Assembly (NCBI GenBank): GCA_964247135.1
Contig: CAXTTL010000066.1
Location: 1 to 20,626 of the forward strand
Direction of reading: 5' to 3'
Length of the DNA: 20,626 bases
Origin: an uncultured Deinococcales bacterium
Lineage (GTDB): Bacteria; Deinococcota; Deinococci; Deinococcales; JAAFIG01
Shown here: piece after piece, positions 209 to 20,625 of the stretch
Layout of the letters: every line of letters begins with the position of its first letter
Position numbering within the stretch: position 1 is the stretch's first letter
Position numbers and translations under genes: made by a program
The notes under the pieces: model-generated
The model's input: the letters and a program-made list of their open reading frames with translations, nothing else
Database searches by the model: none
What the model was told of the DNA's origin: nothing

Positions 209-243
209 ATCCGAACTCGAGCCAACCCCGAGTTCGGATTTTG
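209..243. terminator. Intrinsic terminator-like hairpin between convergent genes
   Basis: ATCCGAACTCG (209-219) / CGAGTTCGGAT (229-239), an 11-bp stem followed by a short T run on +. Confidence 0.6.
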
Positions 244-253
244 CAGTTCAGAT

Positions 254-1468
254 TTACTTGGCAGAACCAATATCATAAACATAACGGACCGATGGTTCGG
301 TGTAGACCATCAGCTTGGCGGCTGCCACGTCATTTGGGATTTCAAAAAAGTACCGCAATTTGACTTCCTGCCCAGGCGTCAGTTCGGTGTCACCATTTTC
401 GTTGCGGCTGACTTTCAGAAAATTCGCCCCGCAAGAAGTTGTGACCTGACGCTCGTTCTGCGAATCGGTGAACTCGAGGATAAAACCCTCACCGCCACAC
501 ATGCCAACCCCTGCGTTTGGCGCACCCCTCGGCATGGGATTGCGAAACCCAAAAATCAGACGCACGAAACGCTTGCCCTCGCCAGGCTGCACATCGCCAA
601 CCTCGAGCGTGCTGATCTGAGCGCTCTCGAGGCGCATATCGGCTTTGCCCACCGGGTAATACGTGCCCAGTTGCGCGTTGATTTGCTCGAGAGACTTGAT
701 GCCCGTGCTGTCCGCCGCGAACGGGGCAGCCAAGGGTTTGATTTTGCCCGTCAAATCAAAGCGCAAGACCCCAGCCTGACGTTCATTCCAACGTTCGACC
801 AGCAACTTTGGCACACTGACCTCGTTCGGCACGACAAACACGGTGTAGGCATCGAGTCTCTGCCCTGGTTTTAAGGGCGTGTCCAGCGGTGTAGAATCAT
901 TGTCCCTGGCAATGGCAATTTCACTGCCAGCCCAGTCTGGTGTCACCGAAACGCTGTTGGAATCGACCACCGTAAAGACAAAACTGGCATTGTTCAGTTG
1001 AACATCCTTACCCGATTGCGGATTTTGCGCGGTGAAACGCACCAACAAGAGTTTTTGTTTGGCGTTTGACACCCAAACATTCTGCCCGATGGCAACCCGT
1101 CCAACCAGGTACTCGAGGCTGCGGAGCGTAAAATTTAAAGGGCTAAGCTTGCCCAAAGTGGCAGTTTTGCCAAACACGCCCACGCCGCCAGAAAGCTGTT
1201 GCGTGCCAGCCGCACCCGTATCGTTTGGCTTTGAGGGCGTCGGACTTGCCGCACCCGCTCGAGAGAGTGCCAAGGTGTTGCCAGACGCAACCGCATTCAC
1301 GCCCAAGCTTTTTAAGGCAGCCAGCGGGACATAACTTTTACCCGCCACCACAATGGCTTTTTCGCTCGAGGCAACCCCGTTAATGGTGAGGTTCAAGCTT
1401 TTTTGTACGGCTTGGGCGATGACAAGACCACCAAACAACACGACGCCAACAACCAAATATTTTCGCAT
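254..1468 (-). CDS. Secreted protein: signal peptide, short copper-amine-oxidase-N-like domain, linker, two beta-rich DUF4352-like (Ig-like) domains
   Basis: Start moved to ATG 1468 (MRKYLVVGVVLFGGLVIAQA) because of the GAGGAG RBS and signal peptide. N-domain LTING...AIVVAGKSYVPLAALKSLG. Two similar modules (KLLLVRFTAQNP...LKPGQ...FVVP and RFVRLIFGFRNP...LTPGQ...FEIP). Confidence 0.7.
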   Translation of the reverse strand: MRKYLVVGVVLFGGLVIAQAVQKSLNLTINGVASSEKAIVVAGKSYVPLAALKSLGVNAVASGNTLALSRAGAASPTPSKPNDTGAAGTQQLSGGVGVFGKTATLGKLSPLNFTLRSLEYLVGRVAIGQNVWVSNAKQKLLLVRFTAQNPQSGKDVQLNNASFVFTVVDSNSVSVTPDWAGSEIAIARDNDSTPLDTPLKPGQRLDAYTVFVVPNEVSVPKLLVERWNERQAGVLRFDLTGKIKPLAAPFAADSTGIKSLEQINAQLGTYYPVGKADMRLESAQISTLEVGDVQPGEGKRFVRLIFGFRNPMPRGAPNAGVGMCGGEGFILEFTDSQNERQVTTSCGANFLKVSRNENGDTELTPGQEVKLRYFFEIPNDVAAAKLMVYTEPSVRYVYDIGSAK

Positions 1469-1613
1469 GATGTGCTCCTCTCGAGTCTTCAGCATAGGCG
1501 AAAATTTTTGATGGACACAAAGTGATGGGTTTGAAGCCGTGCTTAACGAATAAGTCACGAACTGAATCTCGAGTGATGTTTCAAATGACCGAGCGTATAG
1601 CCAAACCAAAACG

Positions 1614-2015
1614 TCATTCTCCAGATTGCCGTTTGTAATTCCGAATGACCATCCCCTGCGCCTCGAGCATCCCGCATTTCGCGTAAAAGCCCTTCATATT
1701 ATCGTCGCACATCAGGTCAATCATGTAAAAACCTGAAAGCCTCTCGAGCATTTGCCGCATGAGTTCGCGCCCAATGCCTTGCGCTTGAAATTCGGGCAGC
1801 ACCTCGAGCGAGGGAATATACGCCGTCAAAATCCCATCCGAAATCGCAGTGATAAACCCAACCACGCGGTCATCCTCGAGCGCCAAACACACATGGCTTG
1901 AGCCGCGCAAAATCTCGAGGTGTTTGGCTGGCGTGGGTGGGTTCAACCAGCCAACAAAGAAACCTTCCAAGTTTTCTGGTACGATGTGCTCGAGGTTGTG
2001 CTGATACCGAATCAT
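1614..2015 (-). CDS. GNAT family N-acetyltransferase
   Basis: Acetyl-CoA motif A ([17 protein letters not shown]) and C-terminal FYAKCG; ATGA overlap with dtd. Confidence 0.9.
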
Positions 2016-2467
2016 GGTTTCAACCTCTCACTCGAGTCAATAATAATCGTCACAGGACCATCGTTGACCAAACTGACTTTCATCTCGGTTTGAAAAATTC
2101 CTGTTTGCACCTCGAGGTTTTCATTGCGCAGCATTTCGCAAAAGGTTTTGTACAAACGGTTGCCATCGTCTGGACTGGCGGCTTGCGAAAACCCTGGGCG
2201 GTTGCCGTCTCGAGTGTCGGCGTACAGCGTGAATTGGCTGACGGCAAGAACTGCGCCATTCACTTGCTCGAGCGATACATTCATTTTCCCAGCTTCGTCG
2301 TTGAATACCCGCAACTTGGCAATTTTTCGCGCCAGGTACGCCGCATCGTCTTGCGTGTCGCCGCGTTTCACACCCAGCAACACCAGAAAACCCCGTTCGA
2401 TCTCGCCAACAATTTTGCCTTCAACCATCACATTGGCGCTCGAGACGCGCTGAATCACGGCTTTCAT
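2012..2467 (-). CDS. dtd: D-aminoacyl-tRNA deacylase
   Basis: MKAVIQRV start, SQFTL, GNRPGF and NDGPVT signature motifs. Confidence 0.97.
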
Positions 2468-2715
2468 GATGGTGTTTGTAATCCCATTTTGAGCGAGTGA
2501 ATGCCTTCAGTCAGCGCTCGAGCTTCTTCAGCGTCCAAATTGCCACGCGTTTTTTGTGCCAGCACCTCGAGAATCCGCAGGCTGCGTTCGGCGGTTTCGC
2601 GTCGTTGCACGCCGTCGCGTTCGAGACGGCTCGAGAGCACGTTTAAGTTTCCCAGTGCCGCTTCGCCTGTGGCGGTTAGAGACTGAATCAAACCAAGAAA
2701 ATCAGAATTCGACAT
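2464..2715 (-). CDS. DUF1844-like small protein
   Basis: FLGLIQSL...ALG and L..L..KTRGNL..EE pattern; GAGGTG RBS; ATGA overlap with dtd. Confidence 0.75.
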
Positions 2716-2728
2716 AACACCTCGAGCC

Positions 2729-3355
2729 TTAGAATAACGTGGTTTGCTCGACCTCGAGCTTGATGTCTGGTTTTGCGCCCAAAGCCTCGAGTTCTGCCTT
2801 GACGGTTTTGATGTCCTGCCAGGTCAACCATTTTGGACCGCCCGTGGTTCGGACTGGGTTTCGCAGCAGATACGCGGGGTGAAACATCGGAAAAATCTTG
2901 ATCGGCGCACTCAATTTCTTAAATTCACCCCACACCCCTCGGGTTTTGGTGATGCCCAAACTTGTGCCTGTCGCCCATTGCGTTGGCACATTCCCCAAGG
3001 TCACAATGATCTGCGGGCGAATCAATTGAATCTGCTCAATCAACCAATGTTCGCAAGCTGCGATTTCATCGGTTTCAGGATTGCGGTTGCCAGGAGGACG
3101 GCATTTGACGATATTGGCAATGTACACCGACTCTCGAGGGATTTGAACGGCAGCCAGAATTTGATCGAGCAATTGCCCAGCACGACCCACGAACGGACGA
3201 CCCGTTTTGTCCTCGTCCTCGCCTGGACCTTCGCCAATAATCATCAGTTGCGCGTCGGGGTGTCCTTCGCCAAACACGACATTCTTGCGGGTTGGGGCGA
3301 GTTTGCAAGTGGTGCAACTCGAGCAAACAAGTCCAAGATTCTCGAGATCGGTCAT
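2729..3355 (-). CDS. Uracil-DNA glycosylase, family 4 ([4Fe-4S] type)
   Basis: CxxC at the N-terminus, GEGPG, PFVGRAG, VKCRPPGNR, HPAYLL. Confidence 0.95.
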   Translation of the reverse strand: MTDLENLGLVCSSCTTCKLAPTRKNVVFGEGHPDAQLMIIGEGPGEDEDKTGRPFVGRAGQLLDQILAAVQIPRESVYIANIVKCRPPGNRNPETDEIAACEHWLIEQIQLIRPQIIVTLGNVPTQWATGTSLGITKTRGVWGEFKKLSAPIKIFPMFHPAYLLRNPVRTTGGPKWLTWQDIKTVKAELEALGAKPDIKLEVEQTTLF

Positions 3356-3361
3356 ACGGTC

Positions 3362-3367
3362 ATTTTA
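3362..3367 (-). promoter_or_regulatory. -10 box TAAAAT of a leaderless promoter for the udg operon
   Basis: Minus strand reads TAAAAT-gaccgt-ATG (6-nt gap); no SD sequence. Confidence 0.7.
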
Positions 3368-3491
3368 CCTGTGCATGAAGGTTTGAAACGCAATGGCGTT
3401 CTCTATTTTTGATTCAATCTACAATTTGTTTGCAGTAAAATTCAGGCGTCGCAACTGAACAAGATATTTTAGAAACTGGTACAGACAAAAT

Positions 3492-3517
3492 TGACCGTCA
3501 TCAAAAAATGACGGTCA
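3492..3517 (-). terminator. Hairpin/terminator downstream of the YciF-like gene
   Basis: TGACCGTCAT (3492-3501) / ATGACGGTCA (3508-3517), perfect 10-bp stem, followed by ATTTT on minus. Confidence 0.65.
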
Positions 3518-3558
3518 TTAAACAATTTAACTTTGACTCAAATTGCAAAACTCGAGTT

Positions 3559-4068
3559 TTAATCAGCCGCAGATTGCATGGCATCTGTGTTAATGACGCT
3601 CATGGCTAAATCGGTCAAAAGGTGGTCAGTGTCGCCCTCTTCGCCAGCAATGCGGTGCAAGGTGTTGTGCGCCTCGGATTCGCCAAGCATCTTCGCATAG
3701 GCGCAAACCGTGCCGTAACCCGCGATTTCGTAGTGCTCAACGCGTTGCGCGGCGGCAATCAAACCGGCATCCATCACATCAGGTTCAATTTGTGCTTTCT
3801 TCGCCAGAAGTTCACTGCCCTCTTTGATCAAGCCCTTCATGGCTTCGCAGGTGTGACCATCGGGATTTGCACCCAAGTTTTTAACGATTTTTCCAACGTC
3901 CTCGCGCTGCTTTTTGGTTTGCTCGAGGTGCTTTTCAAAAGCTTGACGCAATTCTGGATGGGTGGCGGCTTTTGCCATCAATGGAATGGCTTCGACCAGT
4001 TGCGTTTCGGCACTGTAGAGGTCGCGGAGTTGCTCGATGTAGAGGTCTTTAAGGTTGTTCATCTTCAT
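3559..4068 (-). CDS. Ferritin-like stress protein, YciE/YciF (DUF892) family
   Basis: Start ATG 4068 with AAGGAG RBS. Motifs LRDLYSAE, CEAMKGLIKEG, DAGLIAAAQRVEHYEIAGYG. Confidence 0.93.
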   Translation of the reverse strand: MKMNNLKDLYIEQLRDLYSAETQLVEAIPLMAKAATHPELRQAFEKHLEQTKKQREDVGKIVKNLGANPDGHTCEAMKGLIKEGSELLAKKAQIEPDVMDAGLIAAAQRVEHYEIAGYGTVCAYAKMLGESEAHNTLHRIAGEEGDTDHLLTDLAMSVINTDAMQSAAD

Positions 4069-4264
4069 GGCTATTTCTCCTTTTGGCATTTTGAGTGCCG
4101 TGTTGTTTGCTGCCAGAGTATTTTTGCCCATATTGCTCTGCCACATCTGATTGCGCCCTGAACCCGAGCTGAAGAAAAACGCTGAGACCAACAAAGTGAA
4201 GCAATTGTGTGGAACGAATGTAATTCCACAAAGCGCAGTTGAAAATCATGACCTATAGAGGCAG

Positions 4265-4314
4265 AAAAACCGATCAACCTCGAGCGAACGCTGCATCCAG
4301 GTTGATCGGTTTTT
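4265..4314. terminator. Long bidirectional terminator-like hairpin after the mutase gene
   Basis: AAAAACCGATCAACCT (4265-4280) / AGGTTGATCGGTTTTT (4299-4314), perfect 16-bp inverted repeat. Confidence 0.75.
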
Positions 4315-4384
4315 ACCATTTTGAATTCTATATTTTGAAATTCCTTTGGTTGACCGGTATATTCATTCAATTGTCATCCGAGAA

Positions 4385-6031
4385 TCAAATCGCCACGGGT
4401 TCTTCATACACCCCGTACACCCCTCGCAACACATCCATCATCTCGCCCAGCGTGGCGTAAGCGTGGGCGCACTCGAGAAACGCGGGCATGGTGTTCTGCC
4501 CCAGCACCGCGACTTTGCGCAGTTGCTCGAGACTCGCGGCGTGTCTGGTCGCATCCCGTTCGCGGCGCACCTGCGCGAGGCGTTCGGCTTGAATGCGTTC
4601 CACTTGTTTGTCCACCAGTTGAATCGGCACGGACAGCGGTTTATTGTCGCTGAATTCGTTCACGCCAACAATAATCCGTTTTTTGCCGTCCACCTCGCGT
4701 TGATAACGGTAACTCGCGTCGCCAATCTCGCTCGAGAAAAACCCATGCTCCAGCGCTTTCACCACGCCGCCGAGGTTGCGAATTTGGGTGATGTAACGCA
4801 TGGCTTGGCTTTCGACTTCATCGGTCAGTTTCTCGAGGTAGTAACTGCCCGCGAGTGGGTCGATCACGTTTGCCACGCCTGTTTCGTGGGCGATGATTTG
4901 TTGGGTTCGCAGCGCAATCGTGGCGGCATCTTCGGTCGGCAGCGCCAGGGCTTCATCGAACGAATCGGTGTGAAGGCTTTGCGTGCCGCCCAGCACGGCT
5001 GCCAGGGCTTGAATCGCAACTCGAGCGATGTTGGTCAGCGGTTGTTGCGCGGTCAGACTGACCCCTGCGGTTTGGGCGTGGGTGCGGAGCATCCAGGATT
5101 TCGGGTTTTTCGCGCCGTAACGGTTTCGCATCTCAGAAGCGTAAATTCTTCTGGCGGCACGAAACTTGGCGATTTCCTCAAAAAAATCGTTGTGAACATC
5201 GAAAAAGTAACTGATGCGCGGTGCGAATTCGTCAATGTCCAACCCTCGAGCCAGCGCCTGTTCGACGTAATGAAAGCCGTCCGCCAGGGTAAACGCGAGT
5301 TCTTGAACATTGGTCGAGCCAGCCTCGCGGATGTGATAACCCGAAACGCTGATAAAATTCCATTTTGGTGTGAACTTGGGCGACCATTCAAAGGTGTCGA
5401 TCACGAGCTTGACACTCGGTTCTGGTGGGAAAATAAATTCTTTTTGGGCGATAAATTCTTTTAAAATGTCGTTCTGAATCGTGCCGCCCAGATTCTCGAG
5501 TTTAAAACCCTGATTTTCGGCGTTCGCCAAGTACATTGCCCAGATCGCGCTGGCGGGCGAGTTGATCGTCATGCTGGTCGTGACCGTCTCGAGGTTCACG
5601 CCTTTAAACAGCACTTCCATATCGGCAAGGCTCGAGACTGCCACGCCACACTTCCCAACTTCGCCACGCGCCATGATGTGATCGCTGTCGTAGCCCATCA
5701 AGGTTGGAAGGTCGAAAGCGGTGCTCAAGCCCGTCTGACCCGCCTCCAAGAGCGCGTGGAAGCGTTGGTTGGTTTGCTCGGCGCTGCCAAAACCAGCGAA
5801 CATCCGCATCGTCCAGAGTTTGGCGCGGTACATGCTGGGTTGCACACCTCGAGTGAACGGGTATTCTCCTGGCATTCCCAGTTTTTCAGCAGACTCGAGT
5901 TCGCCCAAATCGTCTCGAGTGTAAATCGGTTCTGGATCAATCCCGCCCATGCTCGAGAAGAGCACATCGCGTTCTGGGAATTTTTGATTCGCTTTTTGGT
6001 ACACGCCCGTCAGCCAGGATTTCTTGTCCAT
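4385..6031 (-). CDS. B12-dependent acyl-CoA mutase large subunit (methylmalonyl-CoA mutase family, isobutyryl-CoA-mutase-type signature), no cobalamin-binding domain
   Basis: Start ATG 6031 with [51 protein letters not shown]. Ends without a DxHxxG B12 domain. Confidence 0.93.
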
Positions 6032-6169
6032 GATGTCCTCCAAAAACTCGAGCAACCCTCGAGCGGTGTTTGATGCTGTCATCATAGAACGTTTAAAGCT
6101 CAAGGATTATCAGTTGCAACCGAATTCATGTACAAAACTTGATGTTGATTCGTCGAGACAGAACTTAAA

Positions 6170-6213
6170 CTCCCTTTTCCCGCGCGGCGGGAGAAAGGCT
6201 GGGGATGAGAGGG
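6170..6213. repeat. REP-like short palindromic element
   Basis: Minus strand CCCTCTCATCCCCAGCCTTTCTCCCGCCGCGCGGGAAAAGGGAG, a purine/pyrimidine-skewed GC-rich hairpin resembling the widespread CCCTCAxCCCxxCCCTCTCCC...GGGAGAGGG repeats. Single copy in this window. Confidence 0.6.
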
Positions 6214-6261
6214 AGACGGAGCAATTGCTAATTTTTTAATGCACTCAAAACAGCTCGAGAC

Positions 6262-7437: not shown

Positions 7438-7517
7438 GGATATTCCTCGAGATTAAATTATTGTTCTTTTTGAATGGCTCGAGATTCAAAATGTTTTGGT
7501 TTAAGGCGTAGGGGTGA

Positions 7518-8839: not shown

Positions 8840-8909
8840 TTTAAAAATCCTATCGATTGAGATTGGGTTTGGGGCTGAAAGTATGTGCCTATGCTCGAGC
8901 TTTGGTTTT

Positions 8910-8938
8910 GGGGCGAAGCGCTTTAAATTCTTCGCCCC
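8910..8938. other. Intergenic stem-loop after oppA (mRNA stabiliser or partial terminator)
   Basis: GGGGCGAAG (8910-8918) / CTTCGCCCC (8930-8938); no U tract on the coding (minus) strand. Confidence 0.6.
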
Positions 8939-8962
8939 GTTTTGTTTGCTCGAGAATCCTTG

Positions 8963-10798
8963 TTACTTCATTGGAATGGTTTCTTTCGCGCCGCGTTGTT
9001 TCCAGCCGACCAACCAACCCAGGGTGCTGGGGTAACGGGTGTTGGCGTTCCAGGTGTAGTTGGTTAAGCCATTGCGAGCGGTGTAAAGGTCGGTGCGTTC
9101 GTACAACGGAATGGCGGGCAGTTCGCGGTTCCAGATGACTTGGGCTTTGGCGAGGATCGCTTTGCGGGCGTCCACGTCGAATTCACGACGGGCTTTGTCC
9201 CAGAGCGAATCGTATTCGGCGTTGCACCAGCCGCCAATGTTTTGCCCAGCAAAGCCGTTGTCGGCGGTTGGCACGTTGTCTTTGATGGTCTTCGAGCTTG
9301 GGTCGTCGCAGTAGTACAAGCCCAGGTCTTCGGTCAGCGGTTGTTGAACGTAAGCGAATTGGAACAGACCCTTCCACTTGCCGTTGCTGGCTTGGGCAAT
9401 GAACGCGTCGTCAAAGACCACGCTCGAGGGGGCGTTGTTGAATTTCACATCGATGCCGATTTTCTTGAGGTTGTCTTTGTAAAATTGTTGATCGCGCTCG
9501 CGCACTGCGTTGCCGGCGGTGGTCACATACTCGAGCACGAACTTGACGGTTTTGCCGTCCACGGTGCGCTCCATGATGCCGTCCGAACCTGGTTTCCAGC
9601 CCATCGCCGCCAAGAGTTGCTTGGATTTCTCTGGGTTGTAATCGTAAGTGTTGATGCCTTGGGTGGTGAAGACGTTCGAGAGACTGTTGACCACGTTGTT
9701 TGAAACTTTTGCCGTGCCGCCGCGCAAGTCCCTGGTCACGGTTTCGCGGTCGATGCCGTAGACCAGCGCTTGACGGGTGCGCACGTCGTTCAAGCCGAGG
9801 TCTTTGACCTCTTGGACTTTGTCAAACTGGTTGACATCCCAGTGTTCCCAGAGTGCGGTTTTTGGCGTGAACACGGTGTACAGACCTTTGGCAGCATCTT
9901 TGAGAGTCTTGATCGTGGTCGCTGAGGCGACCAGACCGACGCTCGAGGTGGCGTCAACTTGCCCCGCCAGCACGTTGACTTGCAGCGTATCGGTCTTTTG
10001 GAAGAATTTGTAAATCAATCGGTCAACCATTTGCGGGTTGTTGCGCCAGTAATTGCTGTTGCGCACCAGCGTCCAGCTTTGATCGCGTTGCCATTTTTGG
10101 AATTTAAACGGTCCAGAGGTCACCACCGGTCCTTGCTTGCTGGTGGCGATGGCGGCGCCCAAGAAATCTTTTTGAATGATCTCGAGTTGCTGCTCTTTGG
10201 ACTTGCCTTGGGCTGCGGCGGTGGCTTTGTCCCAGAGTGGTTTCCAGATGTGTGCCGGTGGAATAAAATTTGCCACAAAGCTTGGCGCGGCGGTGGCGAA
10301 CAGGTACGGCGGGTCGTAGGTCACCTCGAAAGTGTTGTCGTCAATGACCTTCATGGTTTTGGGATAATTGTCACGGGTGGAGACGGGCAGGCGCTCATCT
10401 CCGAAAACGTCGTAAGCGAATTTCATGTCGGCGGTGGTGATCGGACGACCGTCGGACCATTTTGCGCCGGCACGGATGTTCCAACGGATGGTTTGGGCGG
10501 TCACGTCTCCGGCAGCATTTTTGGTCAGTTTGACGCCACCGTTTTTCTCGGTGGGGACCTCACTTGCCAAGTCGGGTTGCAAGGTGCCGTTTTGGTCGAA
10601 GTAGGTCAAACCAGCGTACAGCCAGCCGAGCACTTCAGCCGAAATCGCTTGGTTGTTGACGAAAGGCTCGAGCGCCGAGGGTTGTTGGGTTGTTCCGAGA
10701 ATCAATGAATTGTCTGACGCGCCAGCCAATGCCGATGGACCGAGTGCCATTGTGCCGAGCGCCATGACACCAAATGCTGTAAGCCATTTTTTGTTCAT
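8963..10798 (-). CDS. Peptide ABC transporter substrate-binding protein (OppA/DppA, family 5)
   Basis: Signal peptide (no lipobox), LQPDLA.EVPT, AKWSDGRPIT..D, TSGPFK, DVRTRQAL..GIDR, YNPEKSKQLL, ELPAIPLY; AAGGAGG RBS. Confidence 0.95.
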   Translation of the reverse strand: MNKKWLTAFGVMALGTMALGPSALAGASDNSLILGTTQQPSALEPFVNNQAISAEVLGWLYAGLTYFDQNGTLQPDLASEVPTEKNGGVKLTKNAAGDVTAQTIRWNIRAGAKWSDGRPITTADMKFAYDVFGDERLPVSTRDNYPKTMKVIDDNTFEVTYDPPYLFATAAPSFVANFIPPAHIWKPLWDKATAAAQGKSKEQQLEIIQKDFLGAAIATSKQGPVVTSGPFKFQKWQRDQSWTLVRNSNYWRNNPQMVDRLIYKFFQKTDTLQVNVLAGQVDATSSVGLVASATTIKTLKDAAKGLYTVFTPKTALWEHWDVNQFDKVQEVKDLGLNDVRTRQALVYGIDRETVTRDLRGGTAKVSNNVVNSLSNVFTTQGINTYDYNPEKSKQLLAAMGWKPGSDGIMERTVDGKTVKFVLEYVTTAGNAVRERDQQFYKDNLKKIGIDVKFNNAPSSVVFDDAFIAQASNGKWKGLFQFAYVQQPLTEDLGLYYCDDPSSKTIKDNVPTADNGFAGQNIGGWCNAEYDSLWDKARREFDVDARKAILAKAQVIWNRELPAIPLYERTDLYTARNGLTNYTWNANTRYPSTLGWLVGWKQRGAKETIPMK

Positions 10799-11450: not shown

Positions 11451-11494
11451 CTTTTAAGCCAGCTCAAAGGTGCAATAGAATACCTCCCTCGAGC

Positions 11495-11533: not shown

Positions 11534-11610
11534 GCGCCCATAGCTCAGCCGGATAGAGCATCAAGCTTCTAACTTGACGGTCGCAGGTTCGAGTCCTGCT
11601 GGGCGCACCA
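11534..11610 (+). tRNA. tRNA-Arg, anticodon TCT
   Basis: Acceptor stem GCGCCCA/TGGGCGC, D arm GCTC..GGATA..GAGC, anticodon arm TCAAG-CTTCTAA-CTTGA, T arm GCAGG-TTCGAGT-CCTGC, encoded CCA; 77 nt. Confidence 0.97.
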
Positions 11611-11616
11611 CATTCG

Positions 11617-11643
11617 CCTCGAGACAGCATCTCGAGGTTTTTT
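11617..11643 (+). terminator. Intrinsic terminator of tRNA-Arg
   Basis: CCTCGAGA-cagca-TCTCGAGG followed by TTTTTT. Confidence 0.8.
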
Positions 11644-11673
11644 CATGTATTCTCGAGGCTCGGAGGGTACAAC

Positions 11674-12402: not shown

Positions 12403-12404
12403 TT

Positions 12405-13306: not shown

Positions 13307-13340
13307 AAAACCCGAGCTTGACATTTCAAGCTCGGGTTTT
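13307..13340. terminator. Bidirectional intrinsic terminator downstream of the ApbE cluster
   Basis: AAAACCCGAGCTTGA (13307-13321) / TCAAGCTCGGGTTTT (13326-13340), perfect 15-bp stem with a 4-nt loop. Confidence 0.8.
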
Positions 13341-13409
13341 TTATTTTGATGTCTATTTTTTAGAAAATACATCTCCGAAACGTCAATTACAGTTTTGAGA
13401 ATCACCAAA

Positions 13410-14060
13410 TCAGTTGCGCTGTTCTGAAGTTGCAGTCTTGGTCCGAACTTCGTTTATTCGAAGCCCGAATGTCAGTAACACTGCTGCACCAGCCGTCCAG
13501 TACAACACGACAAGCGAATCGCTGCCTGCAAAAAGACCGTGAATTGTGGCAAAAATAAATGCGGGGTACGACAGTAAGTGCAACACCCTCCAAGCTCGAG
13601 CCGAAAGTCGATTCTTGAAGACGGTCGAGACGTACACGGTCAAGAGGGCGTATACCGTCAAGGTTCCCAGTCCGATCTCGAGGGGTTTGAAACTCGAGGC
13701 AAAGGGCAGCAGCACACCAACGAGCGGTTGACGGTATTGCGCGTCCACCATCAGGAACAACCCGTGAATCATGCTGACCGCCAGGGCAAAACCAGACAGC
13801 AAACCGTGCCAACCGTACTGCGAGGCGCGGTTTAACCAGGCGGGAGCGTATTTGCTCGAGAGCAGCGCCCCAAGACTGGTGCTGATGGCAAGCGCCACAT
13901 AAGCAAGTGTTCCGCTCGAGCGCAAGATCAACCAGGCAAGTGGACCTCCTGGCAGTTTGAGCAAGGATGCCAACCACGCCAGGATCAGGGTGGCAAGAAT
14001 CAGCGCTGTCAGCACTTCGTTAAAGGTTTCAGATTTTTGAGTGGCTGGTTTGGGTGTCAT
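13410..14060 (-). CDS. Ferric-reductase-like / MsrQ-like di-heme membrane protein
   Basis: About 6-7 hydrophobic segments; RSSG..AY; four His (WHGLLS, IHGLFL, WRVLHLLSY, IHGL); no FAD/NAD domain; GGGAG RBS. Confidence 0.85.
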   Translation of the reverse strand: MTPKPATQKSETFNEVLTALILATLILAWLASLLKLPGGPLAWLILRSSGTLAYVALAISTSLGALLSSKYAPAWLNRASQYGWHGLLSGFALAVSMIHGLFLMVDAQYRQPLVGVLLPFASSFKPLEIGLGTLTVYALLTVYVSTVFKNRLSARAWRVLHLLSYPAFIFATIHGLFAGSDSLVVLYWTAGAAVLLTFGLRINEVRTKTATSEQRN

Positions 14061-14072
14061 GAATTTGCTCCC

Positions 14073-14903
14073 TTACGTTGTGAAACTCGAGTTTGACCAC
14101 TCACTGAGGTTGTTATCGGCATCGAACGCCAAGAGTGCCTGAATTTCAGGCTCGAAGGGGCGCAATTGCTGCGACCCGAAAAAGGCGAGTTTGGACAAGA
14201 CTTCGGCGGTGGTCGCACGGCTCGAGACGGCTGTCACTTGGATAAAATTTGACTCGAGCGGTGTACCAGTGCGCGGGTCAATCAGATGATGCCCGCCCTG
14301 CCAAGCGCGGCGCTGGGTGCTCGAGGTGCAGATTCCCCACGTTCCTGCGGGCAGTTCAATGCCGAGTGGTTGATCGTTTGGTGTTTGAGCGTTGACAGCA
14401 AAGGGTTTGGATTGCCTGGCAAAAACATCGCCACCAAAGTCCAGCACAAAATCACCCTCGAGCTTTGCGCCGACCCACTCGGCAATCCAAGTTTTGGCAG
14501 TGCCCCCCAGGTCAATTTGAGTATCTTTTGGCAAGGTAATTCTGTCTTTGCTGACCCGAATACAATACCAAGTTGGGACACTCGAGACTGGGCAATTTGA
14601 CACCTTGAATGACTCGCGCTCGCTCCAAGATCGGCTGTAACCGGCGTGCTCGAGGGCTTTCGAAACCGTTGGTGTAATCAAGCCATTTGTTCGGGCAGCA
14701 ACTTCAAGCGCGTGGCCCAAAGCTTGAACCAGTTCAATCGGTGGATTCTCGAGCACATGATCGCGGTTGAGTTGCGTTAACGGCGAGTCCTGAAAGCGGG
14801 TCAGCAGACGCTCGAGCCGCAGCACTTCCTCGAACGCCCAAGTTGCATCGTTTGCCGTGATGTTGACGGTCGTGCCAAGGGCGTACTCGAGCATCGTCTC
14901 CAT
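14073..14903 (-). CDS. apbE: FAD:protein FMN transferase (ApbE family)
   Basis: ALGT start motif, S.LTQLN, DLGGTAK, GGD, TSS, HHLIDPRTG, AEVLSK. No N-terminal signal or lipobox. Confidence 0.9.
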   Translation of the reverse strand: METMLEYALGTTVNITANDATWAFEEVLRLERLLTRFQDSPLTQLNRDHVLENPPIELVQALGHALEVAARTNGLITPTVSKALEHAGYSRSWSERESFKVSNCPVSSVPTWYCIRVSKDRITLPKDTQIDLGGTAKTWIAEWVGAKLEGDFVLDFGGDVFARQSKPFAVNAQTPNDQPLGIELPAGTWGICTSSTQRRAWQGGHHLIDPRTGTPLESNFIQVTAVSSRATTAEVLSKLAFFGSQQLRPFEPEIQALLAFDADNNLSEWSNSSFTT

Positions 14904-14906
14904 GAT

Positions 14907-15254
14907 TTAGCTCGCTCTGGTTGTGGCAACTGGGGCTTGGACGTAACGCCGCACGATACGCACCACAGGTTTTTGAATGGTTTGAGTTGGAACGCTCGAG
15001 ACGACAGCTTGTACCGGCTTTGATACCGTTGTGACAACAGGTGTGGCAACTTTGGTGACAGTCGTTGCCGTAACTGGCTTTGAGACTGTTGCCACCGCAG
15101 GCGTGTTGACGGTGGTCGTAACTGCTGTTGCTGTCACGGCTTTGGGCGCAAATCCTCGAGCGGTGACGCCGAGGGTTGTGCCGAGCGCAATCAGCAAGGT
15201 CAAACTCAGGGCGAACGAGCCATCGAACTTCTTGCGGGGCTTACTGGGAATCAT
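14907..15254 (-). CDS. Membrane-anchored Thr/Val/Pro-rich protein ending in TTRAS (candidate flavinylation substrate)
   Basis: Start ATG 15254 with AAGGTGA RBS. Basic N-terminus, one hydrophobic helix, low-complexity linker (VSKPV repeated). Stop lies 3 nt before the apbE start. Confidence 0.7.
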   Translation of the reverse strand: MIPSKPRKKFDGSFALSLTLLIALGTTLGVTARGFAPKAVTATAVTTTVNTPAVATVSKPVTATTVTKVATPVVTTVSKPVQAVVSSVPTQTIQKPVVRIVRRYVQAPVATTRAS

Positions 15255-15525
15255 TGCTATCACCTTTGCGATCTTCGTTTGTTTGCTGTTCTTGATCTGT
15301 GTTTTGGCTGGGTGCTGGGACATCCACATATTGAATTTCTGGTTGTGTTTGAGCAACATTGGCAACAGGTGCGTTGTCAAAGGTGGTGGATGCAGACGAC
15401 ACTGCAATTTGAGTTTGAACAGGTGCGGAGACCACTGTGCTGGGTGACGGCGCAAATACGGCATAGGCAAAAGTTGTGGCGCTCACGGTCGCAATGGTCA
15501 TGATGGCAATTCGGATTGGGTTCAT
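15241..15525 (-). CDS. Small exported/membrane-anchored low-complexity protein, first gene of the ApbE cluster
   Basis: AGGAGG RBS; hydrophobic N-terminus, S/T/P/V linker, acidic tail; overlaps the next gene by 14 nt. Confidence 0.65.
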   Translation of the reverse strand: MNPIRIAIMTIATVSATTFAYAVFAPSPSTVVSAPVQTQIAVSSASTTFDNAPVANVAQTQPEIQYVDVPAPSQNTDQEQQTNEDRKGDSNDSQ

Positions 15526-15557
15526 GGTTTCCTCCTGAGACGCAGTGTCTCATGGCG

Positions 15558-15596
15558 CGGTTTCTGCACGGTAACAACTCGGTTAAGTTTTGGTTA
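15558..15596 (-). promoter_or_regulatory. Four 11-bp-phased direct repeats (putative OmpR/PhoB-type boxes) upstream of the ApbE cluster
   Basis: Plus strand CGGTTT (15558), CGGTAA (15569), CGGTTA (15580), TGGTTA (15591). Confidence 0.5.
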
Positions 15597-15629
15597 CGGC
15601 ATCAAAACCCGAGAACATGACGAACATCC

Positions 15630-15665
15630 AAAGAAAAAGTGCCGCCAAATTCTATGGCGGCACTT
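15630..15665 (-). terminator. Intrinsic terminator of rny
   Basis: AAGTGCCGCCA (15637-15647) / TGGCGGCACTT (15655-15665), followed on minus by TTTCTTT. Confidence 0.8.
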
Positions 15666-15687
15666 GAAGTTCAAAACTCGAGAAGCT

Positions 15688-17370
15688 TTACTTGGCGTAT
15701 TCGACGCTGCGGCTTTCGCGGACCACCGTCACTTGCACCTGCCCTGGGTATTCCATGTCCTGCTCGATGCGTCCTGCAATTTCTCGAGCGATCAAGGCGG
15801 CTTTGGAATCCGAGACTTTCTCGGGTTGCACGATCACGCGCACTTCACGTCCTGCCTGAATCGCGTAAGCGCCAGAGACGCCTGGGAAGCTGGTGGCAAT
15901 CGTCTCGAGTTGCTGGAGGCGTTTGACATAGGTCTCGAGGTCTTCACGGCGAGCACCTGGTCGGGCGGCAGAGATCGCGTCGGCGGCGGCAGCCAATACG
16001 CTGAAGACGCTCTCGCCGTTTTCGGGGTCGTGGTGGTGGGCAATCGCGTCGATGACTTCAAACGGTTCGCCGAAACGCTTGGCGAGGTTGATGCCGATTT
16101 CGACATGTGTGCCTTCGATCTCGCGGTCAATGCTTTTGCCGATGTCGTGCAACAATCCAGCGCGACGTGCCAGGGTCGCATCAAGCCCAAGCTCTGCCGC
16201 CATGATGCCCGTCAGGTGCGCCACCTGAATGCTGTGCTTCAAAACATTTTGCGCGTAACTCGAGCGAAAGTGCATCCGACCAAGCAATTGCAACAAACCT
16301 GGTTTGAGACCGACCACATTGGCTTCAATCGCAGCTTCCTCGCCGCGCTCGAGAATGTAGGTTTTCATTTCGTCTTGGGCTTTGGCAACCACCTCTTCGA
16401 TGCGGGTTGGGTGAATGCGTCCGTCTGTCACAAGTTGCTCGAGGGCTTTGACGGCAACCTCGCGGCGAATCGGGTTGAAGCTCGAGAGGATCACAGCTTC
16501 TGGTGTGTCGTCAATGATTAAATCGACGCCGGTCAAGCTTTCAAAGGCGCGAATATTCCGTCCCTCGCGTCCGATGATCCTGCCTTTCATCGCGTCCGAT
16601 GGAATCGGCACGACGCTGACCGCCATGCTGGCGGTGGTTTCGGAGGCGGAACGTTGAATGGCTTGGGCGATGATGCTTTGGCTGCGGCGCTTGACATCGA
16701 GGCTGACCTTCTCGAGCATCACTTTGACGCGCACGCCTTTTTCTTCCTCGAGTTCATTGTCGAGTTTCTCGAGGATCATTTCGCGGGCGGCTTCGCGTGA
16801 AAGTTCGCCAACTTCGTAGAGTTTGCGTTCGGCTTCGTGGATTTTGGCGTCGGCTTGCACCAACAATTCTTGGTAGCGCTTTTCTTCGACTGAGATTTTC
16901 TCCTCGAGTGCGTCCAATTTGACGGCTCGAGCATCGAGTTGCTCTCCCCTGCGGCTTAAACGTTCTGTCTCGAGGCGGGCTTCCTCGCGCTCGGACTTGA
17001 TGCTCTCGCGCTCGGACTTGATGCCGTCGCGCTCGGCGAGGATCGCGTCGCGTTCGCGTTTGTTGTCCTCGTCGATACGGGTTTTGAGTTGCAAGCCCTC
17101 GTCGCGTGCCTTGAGTTCTGCGTCCTTGCGGATGCGGTCGGCGTCGGCGTCGGCTTGGCGGCGAATGGTTTCTGCTTCCCGTCGGATGGAATCGGCTTCC
17201 CTCTGGGCGTTCTCGCGCAAGCCAGCATCGGCTGCGGTTCGAGACTCGAGTTCACGCTTGTGTCCCTCTTGAATGTTCTTGAGGTTGGCGTTGTTGAGGA
17301 AATACATGATTCCAGCACCGACGAGAGCGGCGACAATGGCGGTAAGAACAACAATGAGTATGGTATCCAT
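15688..17370 (-). CDS. rny: Ribonuclease Y
   Basis: Start ATG 17370 with GAGGAG RBS. N-terminal TM helix, coiled coil, KH domain ([14 protein letters not shown]), HD domain (GLLHDIGK), [22 protein letters not shown]. Confidence 0.97.
16984..17036. repeat. In-frame 21-bp tandem repeat within the rny coiled coil
   Basis: CTCGCGCTCGGACTTGATGCT / CTCGCGCTCGGACTTGATGCC / GTCGCGCTCGG, encoding [18 protein letters not shown]. Confidence 0.85.
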
Positions 17371-17544
17371 TTCAGCTCCTCTCGTGGTTTTACTGCGAGG
17401 CAGTCTGACCATGCCCAAATCCAGGCACAAAGAAACGTCATGTCCGTGCTGGAAACACGAAAAGCGTTTTGAGTTAAGGTTTTGAACGGGGAAGTCATTC
17501 CACCGAAGATCGTGTTAAACATAAAGGTTGACCCTTCAGCCCTG

Positions 17545-17553
17545 AGTGTAACA
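17545..17553 (-). promoter_or_regulatory. Extended -10 (TGtTACACT), probable rny promoter
   Basis: Minus strand TGT-TACACT about 175 nt upstream of the rny ATG, within the palindrome AGTGT-A-ACACT (17545-17555). Confidence 0.5.
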
Positions 17554-17628
17554 CTTGGAAAGCAAAATGAGCGCAGTCAAGGTCGCTATTCAAAGTCCAT
17601 CGAGATTTTGGGGTTCTGAAACGATCTT

Positions 17629-17637
17629 TGCTAGATT
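17629..17637 (+). promoter_or_regulatory. Extended -10 (TGcTAGATT) leaderless promoter for the MFS gene
   Basis: TGC-TAGATT-gtgaag-ATG (ATG 17644), 6-nt gap. Confidence 0.65.
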
Positions 17638-17643
17638 GTGAAG

Positions 17644-18852
17644 ATGTTTCGTGTAGCGAGTTTTCTTGAAGAAATTCCCGAATATCCCCTTCTCGCCATT
17701 CCAGTCTTGCTTTTGGGATTCGCCGCCTCGTTCTCAATGCCGTTCATCTCGCTTTTTGGCACGAACATCATTCACATGACCCCATTGGCGCTTGGCACGT
17801 ATTTAAGTTCGGTCGCTGTCTCGAGCATCGTGCTGAGTATGTTCACGGCACGGGTTTCGGATCGCTTGCGAAGTCGCAAACCCGTGGTGCTGGTAGGGCT
17901 GGTGTCGGCGGCATCTGGTTATCTGGCGCTGGCTTTGGTTCGGGATTACACGGCATTGCTGGTGCTGGCAAGTTTTTGTTTGGGTTTGGGAGCTTCGGCG
18001 TTTCCGCAAATATTCGCCCTTGCCCGCACGCAATTTTTGGGAAACAGCCTCTCGCAACAAGCCGTCACGGCGCTCCGTTCAATCTTCTCGCTGGCTTGGG
18101 TGGTCGGTCCGCTCGGCGGGTCGGTGTTGCTCGAGAAATTCGGTTTTACGGGTTTGTTCTTGGCAAGCGGCGCCTGTTATGTCGTTGCGTTGGCATTTAT
18201 TTTGTTGCTGCCCGTCAAAGCCTCGAGCGACGGCATTTCCAGGGTTGTTTCCAGCAACAATCGCAGCGATGCCCCGCCGCCAACCGTGGGTTTGGTGGTG
18301 ATGTGCTTTGCGTTTTACAACATGGCAATCAGCATGGGCGCATGTTGGTTGCCGATTTTGGTGACCAAAACCTTGGCTGGCACGACCGCCAATGTGGGTT
18401 TTATCGCCAGATTGTGTGCCCTCTTGGAAATTCCAATCATGATGGGTTTTGCCCTGTGGCGCAAACGCCCGAGCGACTCGAGTTTTATCATTTGGGCATT
18501 TCTCTTGTGTGCCGTTTATTTTGTGATCGTTGGTACGACCAGCTCGATGCTGATGTTGAATCTGGTCCAGGTGGCACGGGCGACTGCCATTGCCATCAGC
18601 GCCACCATCGGCATGGCGTACTTTGGATTATTGATGCCCAGCCGTGTCGGTACCGCCATGACCTTGTACTCAAATGCCATGAGCATCGGATCAATGCTGG
18701 CGGGCTTGGTCGGGGGTTTTGTGGCGCAGCATTTTGGTTTGCGCAACGTGTTCTTTTTGGGTGCCACGCTGGTTGCGGTTGCTGCACTGGTTTTCTTCTG
18801 GCAAGCTCGAGGTCTTATTCCAAACCCGCAGGGTCAATCCAACCCCGCTTGA
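17644..18852 (+). CDS. MFS transporter, sugar efflux transporter (SET)-like
   Basis: About 12 TM segments; motif A-like SDRLRSRK; FPQIFALAR, LRSIFSLAWVVGP, CALLEIPIM, MPSRVG.A.TLYSN, typical of SetA-like proteins. Confidence 0.88.
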   Translation: MFRVASFLEEIPEYPLLAIPVLLLGFAASFSMPFISLFGTNIIHMTPLALGTYLSSVAVSSIVLSMFTARVSDRLRSRKPVVLVGLVSAASGYLALALVRDYTALLVLASFCLGLGASAFPQIFALARTQFLGNSLSQQAVTALRSIFSLAWVVGPLGGSVLLEKFGFTGLFLASGACYVVALAFILLLPVKASSDGISRVVSSNNRSDAPPPTVGLVVMCFAFYNMAISMGACWLPILVTKTLAGTTANVGFIARLCALLEIPIMMGFALWRKRPSDSSFIIWAFLLCAVYFVIVGTTSSMLMLNLVQVARATAIAISATIGMAYFGLLMPSRVGTAMTLYSNAMSIGSMLAGLVGGFVAQHFGLRNVFFLGATLVAVAALVFFWQARGLIPNPQGQSNPA

Positions 18853-19504
18853 TGCCCGTCAAGACTGCCTCGGTTCTCGAGCCGACCCCAAGTTTGGAAA
18901 AAATATTGGCAAGGTGAACCTGCACGGTGCGCGGTGAAATCTCGAGATTTTTGGCAATTTCTTTGTTGGTCGAACCCGTCGCCGCCACCTTCAAAACCTC
19001 GAGTTCGCGCGGACTGAGGGCTTCACCTTCATATTCGGCTGGGGTGCTCGAGCGGGCTTGGCTGGAAAAACGGTTGAGGACTTTTTTGGCGATGCTCGGA
19101 TGCAACACACTTTCGCCGCTTGCCACGGCGCGGATGGCTTGCACCAAGTCTTCGTCTTTGGCATTTTTCAGGATATAACCCGCCGCTCCAGCCTCCAAGA
19201 GCGCGAACACATACGCATCGTCGTCGTAACTGGTCAAGACCAGAATAGCGGTTTTGGGTTGAATCGCCTTGATTTTCTGGGTTGCCTCGATGCCGTTCAT
19301 GCCAGGCATCGAAACGTCCATCAAAATCACGTCAGGTTGAAGCTCGAGGCTTTTCTGCACGGCTTCCGCCCCGTCGCTGGCTTCACCCAAAATTTTCAGG
19401 TCTTTGTGAGGCTCGAGCATTTCCCTTGTGCCTTTGCGCACAATTGGGTGGTCATCTACCAGCAACAGGGTGATATCGCGCTCGAGGTCGGCTTCAAAAG
19501 TCAT
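18815..19504 (-). CDS. NarL/FixJ-family response regulator (REC + LuxR HTH)
   Basis: LVDDHPIVR, DVILMDVSMP, GYILK, LSPRELEVL...NKEIA..L.ISPRTV.VH. No kinase in this window. Confidence 0.96.
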   Translation of the reverse strand: MTFEADLERDITLLLVDDHPIVRKGTREMLEPHKDLKILGEASDGAEAVQKSLELQPDVILMDVSMPGMNGIEATQKIKAIQPKTAILVLTSYDDDAYVFALLEAGAAGYILKNAKDEDLVQAIRAVASGESVLHPSIAKKVLNRFSSQARSSTPAEYEGEALSPRELEVLKVAATGSTNKEIAKNLEISPRTVQVHLANIFSKLGVGSRTEAVLTGIKRGWIDPAGLE

Positions 19505-20625
19505 GAAGTGATTGTAACTCGAGATTGAGGGCGCAACATCAAAAAAGTAACGACGGCTGCCACCGTCACCACCGCGCCAGAAACCGCGAAAACGTTGCGA
19601 ACGCCGATCAGGCTGGCAAGAACGCCAGAAAACGCCATCGAAACCAGACTGGCTGAGTTCATGACAATGTTAAAACCGCTGCCAACCCTGCCCATAAATT
19701 CGTTGGCGATTGAACCTTGCAACAAGGTGGCAAAGCTCGCCTCGAGTGGCGCGACCACCAGACCGATTACGAAATTGACCATACAAAAAAACCAGATGTT
19801 CGGAACAACTACACTAATCGCAACCAAAACGCCCAACGCCATTAAGCCGCTCGAGACCATGTATCGAGGTTTGATTTTGGCGGCAAAACCCATGACCAAG
19901 ACGCCAGACACAATCATGGCAGCCGTTTCGGAAACATTGACCGCCCCAAGCCAGGTGACGGGGACTTTTAGAATATTGATGATGTACGGCGTATAGAGGA
20001 CGTTTGAAGCCCCAAGACCAAACATCGTGACGCCGCCACCGACCAAGACCGCCAGTAAAATTTTGCTGCTCGAAATGATCTTTAAACCCTCGAGCATCGG
20101 CGCAATCATGCCTTCGGTTTTTTGGCTGACTCGAGGCTCGAGTTTGGGCACTTTGACCAACAACACCAGCGCAAACGAGACGAAAAATGTCAGGGCATCG
20201 ACCATGAAGGCTGGCGCGAAACTGTTGGTGAACCCGACAATCACGCCCGCCAATGCCGCACCGACCACACTCGAGACAACCATGCCCGTTTGTGACATTG
20301 AATTGGCTGCCATGTACTGGTCTGGTTTGAGGATTTGTTGCACCACCGCGCCTCTGGCTGGGTTAAAAAATGTCCCGACAGCCGCTTGGAAAAAGGCGAG
20401 CACGTACATCAACATCAAACGGTCTTTGCTCTGGACGAATAAAAATCCTAACACGAGAATGCCTCTGATCAGGTCGCTGGCGAGCATGATGCGTTTGCGG
20501 TCAAATTTATCGACGTAAACGCCGGCAAAAAGTCCAAACACAATGCTGGGAATGGCGATCACAATGCTGAGTGTGGCGATGGCGGTGGTCGAACCCGTGA
20601 GCTTGTTGACCAAAATCAGCAGTGT
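19501..20625 (-). CDS. MFS transporter, DHA3/macrolide-efflux-like (5' truncated by the window edge)
   Basis: Motif A (AGVYVDKFDRKRIMLASDLIRG), FFNPA, DALTF..S, MGRV. The frame stays open to the end of the window. Confidence 0.9.
   Translation of the reverse strand, partial: TLLILVNKLTGSTTAIATLSIVIAIPSIVFGLFAGVYVDKFDRKRIMLASDLIRGILVLGFLFVQSKDRLMLMYVLAFFQAAVGTFFNPARGAVVQQILKPDQYMAANSMSQTGMVVSSVVGAALAGVIVGFTNSFAPAFMVDALTFFVSFALVLLVKVPKLEPRVSQKTEGMIAPMLEGLKIISSSKILLAVLVGGGVTMFGLGASNVLYTPYIINILKVPVTWLGAVNVSETAAMIVSGVLVMGFAAKIKPRYMVSSGLMALGVLVAISVVVPNIWFFCMVNFVIGLVVAPLEASFATLLQGSIANEFMGRVGSGFNIVMNSASLVSMAFSGVLASLIGVRNVFAVSGAVVTVAAVVTFLMLRPQSRVTITS
19511..19516 (-). promoter_or_regulatory. -10 box TACAAT of a leaderless promoter for the response regulator, inside the upstream MFS CDS
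   Basis: Minus strand TACAAT-cacttc-ATG (6-nt gap). Confidence 0.6.

Follow-up and report, generated by a model that had tools for sequence, protein, structure and literature searches.

What keeps an exact six-base palindrome present about once every 150 bp throughout a bacterial genome? The question is raised by a 20,626-nt stretch of DNA, called the window below, which is contig C66 of G000, a metagenome-assembled genome (MAG) of an uncultured Deinococcales bacterium that comprises 5,091,702 bases in 386 contigs (completeness 84%, contamination 1.8%). An initial annotation of the window had counted about 140 copies of CTCGAG and likened them to HIP1, the highly iterated palindrome (HIP) of cyanobacteria, and both points are borne out: we count 141 copies where about four are expected, and the word is enriched more than tenfold, independently of codon usage, in non-coding DNA as well as in genes, and is conserved between relatives. 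We conclude that CTCGAG is a highly iterated palindrome of an uncultured Deinococcales family and a second, independent case of the cyanobacterial type, HIP-like in behavior while differing in word and phylum, and at the highest density that we have seen quoted.

In the window, the first CTCGAG lies at 216–221 and the last at 20270–20275, and none of 100 dinucleotide-preserving shuffles of the window reaches the observed count (mean 3.96, standard deviation 2.14, maximum 13). The genic copies fall within 19 called genes and in all three frames (63 as CTC-GAG, 21 as xCT-CGA-Gxx, and 35 as xxC-TCG-AGx), G+C content along the window is 48–55%, and the reversed word GAGCTC is absent from it. The features of the window to which we refer are the following.

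216–20275, both contexts: CTCGAG, 141 copies, 119 genic and 22 non-coding (about 4 expected from the shuffles)
15688–17430, minus strand: rny (RNase Y), with 14 sites, of which 10 are Leu-Glu, 2 of the Ser-Ser type, and 2 of the Ala-Arg type
11534–11607, plus strand: tRNA gene (Rfam RF00005, 72.2 bits), with CTCGAG on either side at 11488 and 11618
11616–11644, plus strand: terminator-like hairpin just 3′ of the tRNA (RNA fold −14.1 kcal/mol)
8894–8954, minus strand: G+C-rich hairpin flanked by two mutually paired CTCGAG (fold −28 to −30 kcal/mol)
20130–20142, no strand assigned: two CTCGAG 7 bp apart, the closest spacing seen (site positions)

As the initial annotation had noted, all ten Leu-Glu dipeptides of rny are spelled CTCGAG, and its account of the four sites in other frames holds as well.

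An exact word in every genomic context

Confinement of the enrichment to the window had been named beforehand as counting against a genome signature, and this is not what we find: G000 as a whole carries 33,925 CTCGAG (6,660 per Mb, or one per 150 bp) against 1,371 expected from base composition, a 24.7-fold excess that makes CTCGAG by far the commonest hexamer of the genome. Every one of the 386 contigs holds at least 2.56 copies per kb, only eight 3-kb stretches have four sites or fewer, and only 125 of the 4,232 genes (11 of the 2,031 genes of at least 900 nt) are free of sites. The observed-to-expected ratios under Markov models of orders 0 to 4 are 24.7, 35, 14.4, 3.5, and 1.24, and the last is as low as it is because the motif saturates its own subwords (the next base is G for 88% of CTCGA, and CTCGAG accounts for 62% of all TCGA); the maximal-order ratio was therefore set aside as uninformative.

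The two controls proposed in the initial annotation indicate how exact the word is. The 18 one-off variants of CTCGAG stand at 0.08–1.74 times expectation and together make up 22,412 loci versus 33,925 exact copies, and GAGCTC, the reversed control, does not occur at all in the 5.09 Mb, where 1,371 copies are expected. TCGA outside CTCGAG occurs at about 1.05 times expectation, which disposes of a TaqI-like TCGA signal. Past the bases that adjoin a site on either side (39% of sites for G at −1 and C at +1), composition is close to background, and the palindrome arms around them are no longer than chance in coding and non-coding DNA alike, so a longer repeat unit, like a repetitive extragenic palindrome or a miniature inverted-repeat transposable element (REP/MITE), is ruled out.

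The initial annotation had argued that simple codon bias does not explain the sites, and the genome-wide counts agree. Coding DNA carries 6.57 CTCGAG per kb and non-coding DNA 7.16, and the 5,617 non-coding copies compare with 169 expected at 47% G+C, a 33-fold excess in a class that includes any genes missed by the simple gene caller used. When codons were shuffled synonymously within genes, five shuffles gave 3,796–3,988 genic sites where 28,333 are observed, leaving a 7.3-fold excess that is present in each frame (about 5.8-, 14.9-, and 11.6-fold) and that is conservative, because the preserved codon usage is already motif-inflated. Likewise, 17,715 of 22,891 Leu-Glu dipeptides (77%) are spelled CTCGAG, while CTC makes up 15% of Leu codons away from Glu and GAG makes up 32% of Glu codons away from Leu.

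The motif is also visible in the proteins. Leu-Glu is the most over-represented dipeptide of the G000 proteome (22,894 versus 9,742 expected, or 2.35-fold), with Glu-Leu at 1.01 and Ser-Ser at 1.61 times expectation. In rny, the Leu-Glu dipeptides at residues 153, 220, and 360 align in orthologs of other families with Arg-Glu (47 of 66), Leu-Ser (29 of 66), and Tyr-Glu, His-Thr, or His-Ala, respectively; three to five of the rny Leu-Glu sites have other residues in most orthologs from outside the family, and the remaining sites use dipeptides that are conserved everywhere. Since the sites align with ordinary residues in orthologs, they arise by substitution and not by insertion, and spread by insertion is ruled out on the rny genes of G000 and of G157, a MAG of a second lineage described below. 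(One of the 14 rny loci grouped as own clade, L065, belongs by rny identity to that second lineage.)

Outside the reading frames, sites are densest, at 14 per kb, in the 20 bp that follow stop codons, and 1,518 of the 4,232 genes have a site no more than 40 nt past the stop, often as a pair that forms the arms of a hairpin before a T-run. In the window, the arms of the hairpin at 11616–11644 are the CTCGAG copies at 11618 and 11631, with a T-run after them, and the hairpin at 8894–8954 lies downstream of the gene at 8963–10798. From these comparisons, we conclude that sites have been built by synonymous and by amino acid-changing substitutions in any frame, that pairs of them have been placed in terminator stems, and that CTCGAG has reshaped protein sequences.

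Turnover of sites and their distribution across Deinococcota

Conservation was examined by aligning the window, a single 20-kb region, to four congeners at 85–87% nucleotide identity; the Fisher P values of these tests are overstated, because the four genomes are related and non-independent. CTCGAG was kept in 67 of 96, 87 of 112, 58 of 79, and 36 of 50 cases across the congeners (70–78%), compared with 42–47% for all hexamers. At third codon positions, identity is 87.3% inside sites (n = 544) compared with 71.0% outside them (n = 13,588), and non-coding bases are 82.8% identical inside sites (n = 390) versus 78.7% outside. The same difference is seen when the codon is held constant: the third base was kept inside versus outside sites in 135/158 versus 139/261 cases for CTC, 131/146 versus 144/218 for GAG, 65/74 versus 88/139 for TCG, and 45/52 versus 41/64 for CGA.

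Among the 85 positions with at least three relatives aligned, 45 are a site in every genome, 12 are a site in a single genome, and 11 are missing from a single genome, so that gains and losses look balanced. The one-off alternatives to a site are transitions in 39 of 52 cases and are evenly spread over the six positions, with no sign of a deamination hotspot. The neutral expectation is about 1 perfect site per 18 one-off sites, and the observed ratio of 1.5:1 implies a gain/loss ratio about 27 times the neutral one; if the sites are in rough equilibrium, this would correspond to a scaled advantage of about 3, acting through selection or biased conversion.

The rny relatives of G000 are uncultured MAGs labeled 'Deinococcales bacterium'. 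The own-clade loci carry 5.6–7.7 CTCGAG per kb, at 45–60% G+C and without GAGCTC, and named Meiothermus, Calidithermus, and Thermaceae loci carry 1.4–4.0 per kb. The initial annotation raised the possibility that some Meiothermus genomes are similarly enriched; the named Meiothermus and Calidithermus loci are indeed at 4–12 times expectation, but the enrichment is weaker than in the G000 clade. Trueperaceae loci range from 0.8 to 4.1 per kb and Deinococcus loci from 0 to 0.4 per kb.

A survey across the phylum, as the initial annotation had also proposed, covered 364 Deinococcota genomes (including the unpublished G327, on which no claim is built) and found the trait in all of the family of G000 and in a second lineage. 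In the former (f1, five genera), 19 of 19 genomes have 4.3–6.8 CTCGAG per kb, and GAGCTC numbers 0–25 copies in 16 of the 19, the exceptions being G008 (568), G010 (161), and G015 (114). Genus g7 (111 genomes) has 0.01–0.36 CTCGAG per kb, the sister genus g9 (32 genomes) has about 0.7–1.0 per kb, similar to its own GAGCTC count, and many other genera have 1.4–3.5 per kb with GAGCTC depressed. In the second lineage, family f3, CTCGAG reaches 8.6 per kb in G156 and 7.0 in G157, but their congener G158 stands at 0.3 per kb; the value for G042 is 3.6. The rny of G157 is 75% identical to that of G158 and 74% to that of G042, compared with 62–64% to that of G000; G157 is thus closer to G158 and G042 than to G000, and the extreme state is found in at least two lineages.

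The rny genes of G157 and G000 share six site positions, all at universally conserved dipeptides, and the other positions of either gene are specific to its lineage. Of the 16 site positions of G157, 10 are Leu-Glu in G158, but just two of these are spelled CTCGAG there. The contrast among the three genes indicates a force that is present or absent by lineage and that acts over the time of genus divergence. We conclude that a lineage-specific directional force acts on the bare DNA hexamer in every context, and that it both builds and protects sites. The initial annotation had suggested a genome-wide process that creates or maintains the sites, and the frame-independent excess, the excess of Leu-Glu, and the conservation within the same codon all bear out such a process at the DNA level.

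Comparison with known systems and a preferred reading

HIPs comprise HIP1 (GCGATCGC) and alternative cyanobacterial words such as GGCGCC in Calothrix PCC 7103, as described in the passages of PMC4390886 and PMC5861425 on which we draw. Like them, CTCGAG is a short palindrome over-represented tens of times in coding and non-coding DNA in a manner unexplained by codon usage, is retained by related genomes more often than control words are, and holds across a clade with some exceptions. Unlike HIP1, it is another word in another phylum (the HIP1 core CGATCG has just 47 copies in G000 versus 1,371 expected), and its 6,660 copies per Mb exceed the 300–2,700 per Mb given for most HIP1 genomes in the consulted part of Elhai 2015 (PMC4390886). 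The same part reports that cyanobacterial HIPs mostly co-occur with cognate methyltransferases, and it offers a ratchet model; unlike most HIPs, CTCGAG has no co-occurring methyltransferase that we could find in f1, where eight genes were profiled in incomplete MAGs. HIP1 has also been described as giving a methylation-dependent boost to transformation and has been proposed as an uptake signal, and its positions are reported to be periodic on a kb scale.

The DNA uptake sequences of Neisseriaceae (DUS) and the uptake signal sequences of Pasteurellaceae (USS) are 9–12-mers that have an orientation and occur about once per kb. CTCGAG shares with them a family-wide hyper-abundance, genic copies where proteins tolerate the motif, inverted pairs that form post-gene terminators, and a lower density in mobile DNA; it differs in being a palindromic 6-mer at 6.7 per kb. 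That a short palindromic hexamer can mark self DNA in natural transformation is illustrated by Campylobacter jejuni, where, in the part of PMC8468864 that we draw on, methylated DNA is needed for uptake and methylated RAATTY is the self-mark; that mark depends on the methyltransferase CtsM, and none such was found in G000. In the full-text literature (supplements and subscription journals lying outside its coverage), we found no report of CTCGAG or of any iterated palindrome in Deinococcota, and the consulted passages of Elhai 2015 (PMC4390886) and Xu et al. 2018 (PMC5861425) make no mention of Deinococcus or Thermus.

The deficit in mobile DNA is seen in 12 motif-poor contigs (at least 5 kb long, with fewer than 4.5 sites per kb). 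In the three of the 12 that were examined, C75 encodes a type IV coupling protein and a TraG-like ATPase, C42 a RepA-type initiator, and C137 a primase of the plasmid or phage type. These plasmid-like contigs still carry about 3.4 CTCGAG per kb, or about half the genome density, and we conclude that the directional force acted less on plasmid-like DNA.

The reading that we tentatively prefer, at somewhat less than an even chance, is that CTCGAG may be a self-recognition motif kept by drive or selection, as uptake sequences are and as has been proposed for HIP1. The word would be the target of a dimeric DNA-recognizing protein that marks DNA as self, and CTCGAG-bearing DNA would be preferentially taken up, recombined, or repaired, so that copies would accumulate by molecular drive or selection. 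Three features lead us to it: the pairing of sites in terminators, their lower density in mobile DNA, and a distribution that spans the clade yet can switch on and off. A bolder form of it is doubtful, if a serious possibility: that CTCGAG is a self-recognition or uptake signal of Deinococcota, the first palindromic hexamer of that kind, driven by its reader, responsible for some 13,000 extra Leu-Glu dipeptides, and repeatedly arisen or lost.

Several points weigh against reading CTCGAG as a mark of self. We identified neither a receptor or other binding protein for the word nor a methyltransferase that modifies it. CTCGAG is a 6-bp palindrome, whereas the uptake sequences are oriented 9–12-mers. 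The spacing of sites is weakly regular (coefficient of variation 0.96; dispersion index 0.91 in 500-bp bins and 1.12–1.89 in 1–5-kb bins). The genera Deinococcus and Thermus are naturally transformable, and the named Deinococcus and Thermus-type relatives lack CTCGAG enrichment, so competence alone cannot be the determinant. The conservation tests come from one 20-kb window and four related genomes, and selection and biased conversion are indistinguishable in these data.

HIPs have so far been a cyanobacterial peculiarity of debated function, and CTCGAG is a second, unrelated case with another word, a higher density, a measurable imprint on proteins, graded intensities across the phylum, and a rich and a poor congener to compare. 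Comparative tests that go beyond the cyanobacteria thus become possible, for example of the genes that follow the motif and of the need for methylation. If the word does mark self, the role of HIPs, a question of thirty years' standing, could be addressed in an independent system in which nature supplies the on/off contrasts.

Other explanations for the sites

The initial annotation had suggested an orphan CTCGAG or TCGA methyltransferase acting together with biased, methyl-directed repair; in the form of Elhai's ratchet for HIPs, mismatch repair would create and fix the sites as a by-product. The association of cyanobacterial HIPs with cognate methyltransferases speaks for it, as do the restriction-site type of the palindrome, the richness of f1 in methyltransferase genes, and the contrast between motif-poor G158, with no C5 methyltransferase and a marginal D12 fragment, and motif-rich G157, with five C5 and two D12 genes. 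We nevertheless think it rather unlikely, given what a search for the enzyme returned. G000 has two C5 methyltransferase genes, three or four of the PF01555 family, one D12, two MmeI-type (C21 and C192), one 798-aa HsdM-like, and one 1,500-aa type IIG-like gene. Frames of about 500 aa that weakly match PF07669 recur, but these were rejected as candidates, being type I HsdM subunits 27–32% identical to each other. A scan of the 4,232 predicted proteins for (D/N/S)PP(Y/F/W) gave 39 matches, of which 7 are known full-length methyltransferases and 1 is a known contig-end fragment; 10 of the remaining 31 were checked against Pfam and are metabolic enzymes. Eight genes were profiled across the 18 f1 relatives of G000, counting as an ortholog a protein of about 60% identity or more, while the 1,500-aa protein of C112 stayed outside the profiling.

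C189, PF01555: ortholog in 0 of 18 relatives
C36, PF01555: ortholog in 2 of 18, plus a fragment
C207, PF01555: ortholog in 4 of 18, plus a fragment
C14, C5: ortholog in 3 of 18
C178, C5: ortholog in 2 of 18, plus one at 50%
C4 (466-aa protein), partial PF01555: ortholog in 3 of 18, two with stop codons
C169, HsdM-like: ortholog in 1 of 18
C320, D12: ortholog in 6 of 18

No family-wide methyltransferase was found, as each of the eight profiled genes is present in at most 7 of the 19 f1 genomes; the MAGs of the family are 57–94% complete, and non-orthologous enzymes could share one specificity. No PF01555 enzyme was found in the single-contig relative G011, and Vsr was not found in G000 (84% complete). 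The best-conserved gene, the D12 methyltransferase of C320, also has orthologs in G157 and in seven g7 genomes with just 40–419 CTCGAG, and the gene that overlaps it encodes a SacI-family nuclease (PF09566, 29.7 bits versus a cutoff of 19.3), a partner that accounts for the absence of GAGCTC and assigns this methyltransferase to a different word. The two overlapping genes lie at C320:1061-2985, outside the window, and in the seven g7 genomes with the orthologous methyltransferase GAGCTC is also scarce (10–75 copies).

CTCGAG is the recognition word of XhoI and PaeR7I, and restriction targets are normally avoided, not enriched. An XhoI-family nuclease (PF04555) was not found in G000 at its 84% completeness, in any of the 19 f1 genomes, or in f3; such nucleases occur in 7 of the 364 Deinococcota genomes, in five of which a 340-aa PF01555 methyltransferase, 66–79% identical among them, adjoins the nuclease. 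G000 has no ortholog of this methyltransferase, its best match being 26% identical. The enzyme has at least 595 relatives across bacteria and archaea, with no f1-type MAG among the best 80, and the loci of these 80 carriers (425 kb; nuclease adjacent in 58 of 80) contain 134 CTCGAG versus 128 expected, or 1.05-fold. Thus, we could detect no CTCGAG methyltransferase in f1, and carrying one elsewhere does not suffice for enrichment. Separately, the methyltransferase of the XhoI cassette (L376–L455) shows unusual conservation, being 56–65% identical across Deinococcota, methanogenic archaea, cyanobacteria, Planctomycetota, and Acidobacteriota, a pattern that would fit a highly mobile cassette. 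CTCGAG is under-represented in g7 and in named Deinococcus loci, yet no XhoI-family nuclease was found in the 125 genomes of the family of g7.

Two further points tell against the ratchet: its predicted saturation lies near 1 site per kb in the part of Elhai 2015 (PMC4390886) consulted, compared with 6.7 per kb observed, and the losses of sites lack the position bias expected from deamination of 5-methylcytosine. With patchily distributed genes, no XhoI-type enzymes found in f1, and TCGA outside CTCGAG at expectation, the suggestion of an orphan methyltransferase is weakened, as judged from the gene content of MAGs that are 57–94% complete.

We give less credence still to CTCGAG as the binding site of an abundant nucleoid or chromosome-organizing protein, with density under selection. 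A palindrome suits a dimeric binder, coverage of contigs and long genes is near-uniform, spacings below 20 bp are depleted with a mild excess at 50–200 bp, and a chromosome-level role for HIP1 has been argued in the consulted part of Xu et al. 2018 (PMC5861425). However, in a short-range test, the sites show the 3-nt coding period alone, with no helical phasing and no regular spacing. Spacing in G000 has a mean of 148 and a median of 108; a spacing of 6, which would create GAGCTC, has 0 cases, and a spacing of 7 has 87 cases genome-wide. The dispersion indices given above mean that placement is not strongly regular, with counts over-dispersed at 1–5 kb. No candidate protein was found, and such a protein would leave the motif-poor state of the congener G158 unexplained.

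A context-specific mutational bias, arising from a lineage-specific polymerase or repair enzyme and leaving functionless sites, is improbable. The trait does switch between congeners, and all classes of DNA are affected, including plasmid-like contigs and tRNA genes. ARAGORN predicted 66 tRNAs, some of them doubtful, containing 10 sites compared with 34 expected at the genome density and about 1.4 from composition, so the motif has entered structural RNAs too, at about one-third of its genome-wide density; CTCGAG lies inside the mature sequence of several predicted tRNAs (Glu, Asp, Val, Leu, and Thr; e.g., C14:11589-11740 and C157:3282-3938). But no mutational process known to us dictates a complete six-base word, the one-off variants show no position-specific depletion, and existing sites are protected at synonymous positions, so the bias would have to act on fixation or repair and not on the origin of sites alone. 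Finally, ordinary codon or dipeptide usage, for which the commonness of CTC and GAG in G+C-rich relatives and the near-equal CTCGAG and GAGCTC counts of the 32 g9 genomes might be cited, is refuted by the excess left after the codon-preserving shuffle, the 33-fold non-coding excess, and the 0 copies of GAGCTC (the Glu-Leu spelling), and an assembly or binning artifact is refuted by the presence of the trait in 19 separate assemblies, including a single-contig genome.

Such a density of one word has practical consequences. CTCGAG dominates k-mer composition and so affects binning, and unmodified DNA of this kind would be cut by XhoI about every 150 bp. CTCGAG is free of stop codons in all frames on both strands, and its density may therefore lengthen shadow reading frames and mislead gene callers. 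Long shadow frames indeed lie opposite real genes in the window, such as 4346–5464 (plus strand) opposite 4385–6103 (minus strand) and 15664–16521 (plus strand) opposite rny, among others.

Clusters of three sites within about 70 bp were sought in viral contigs and came up at 120 loci at least, mostly chance singletons. One viral contig, L341 (9,722 bases, 64% G+C), has 57 CTCGAG and no GAGCTC, which is the signature of the motif-rich hosts; for its large open reading frames, neither a Pfam match nor a relative in the species genomes was found. Other words are scarce in G000 as well: the 380 GGCC sites amount to 0.016 times expectation, and some 20 palindromic hexamers fall below 0.1 times. 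The remaining GGCC is concentrated in plasmid-like contigs, at 0.43 per kb in the 12 motif-poor contigs versus 0.06 per kb in the other 285 (about sevenfold). GGCC avoidance is not linked to the CTCGAG trait, since the rny loci L233, L235, and L236 (of G011, G157, and G158) have 17–25 GGCC each.

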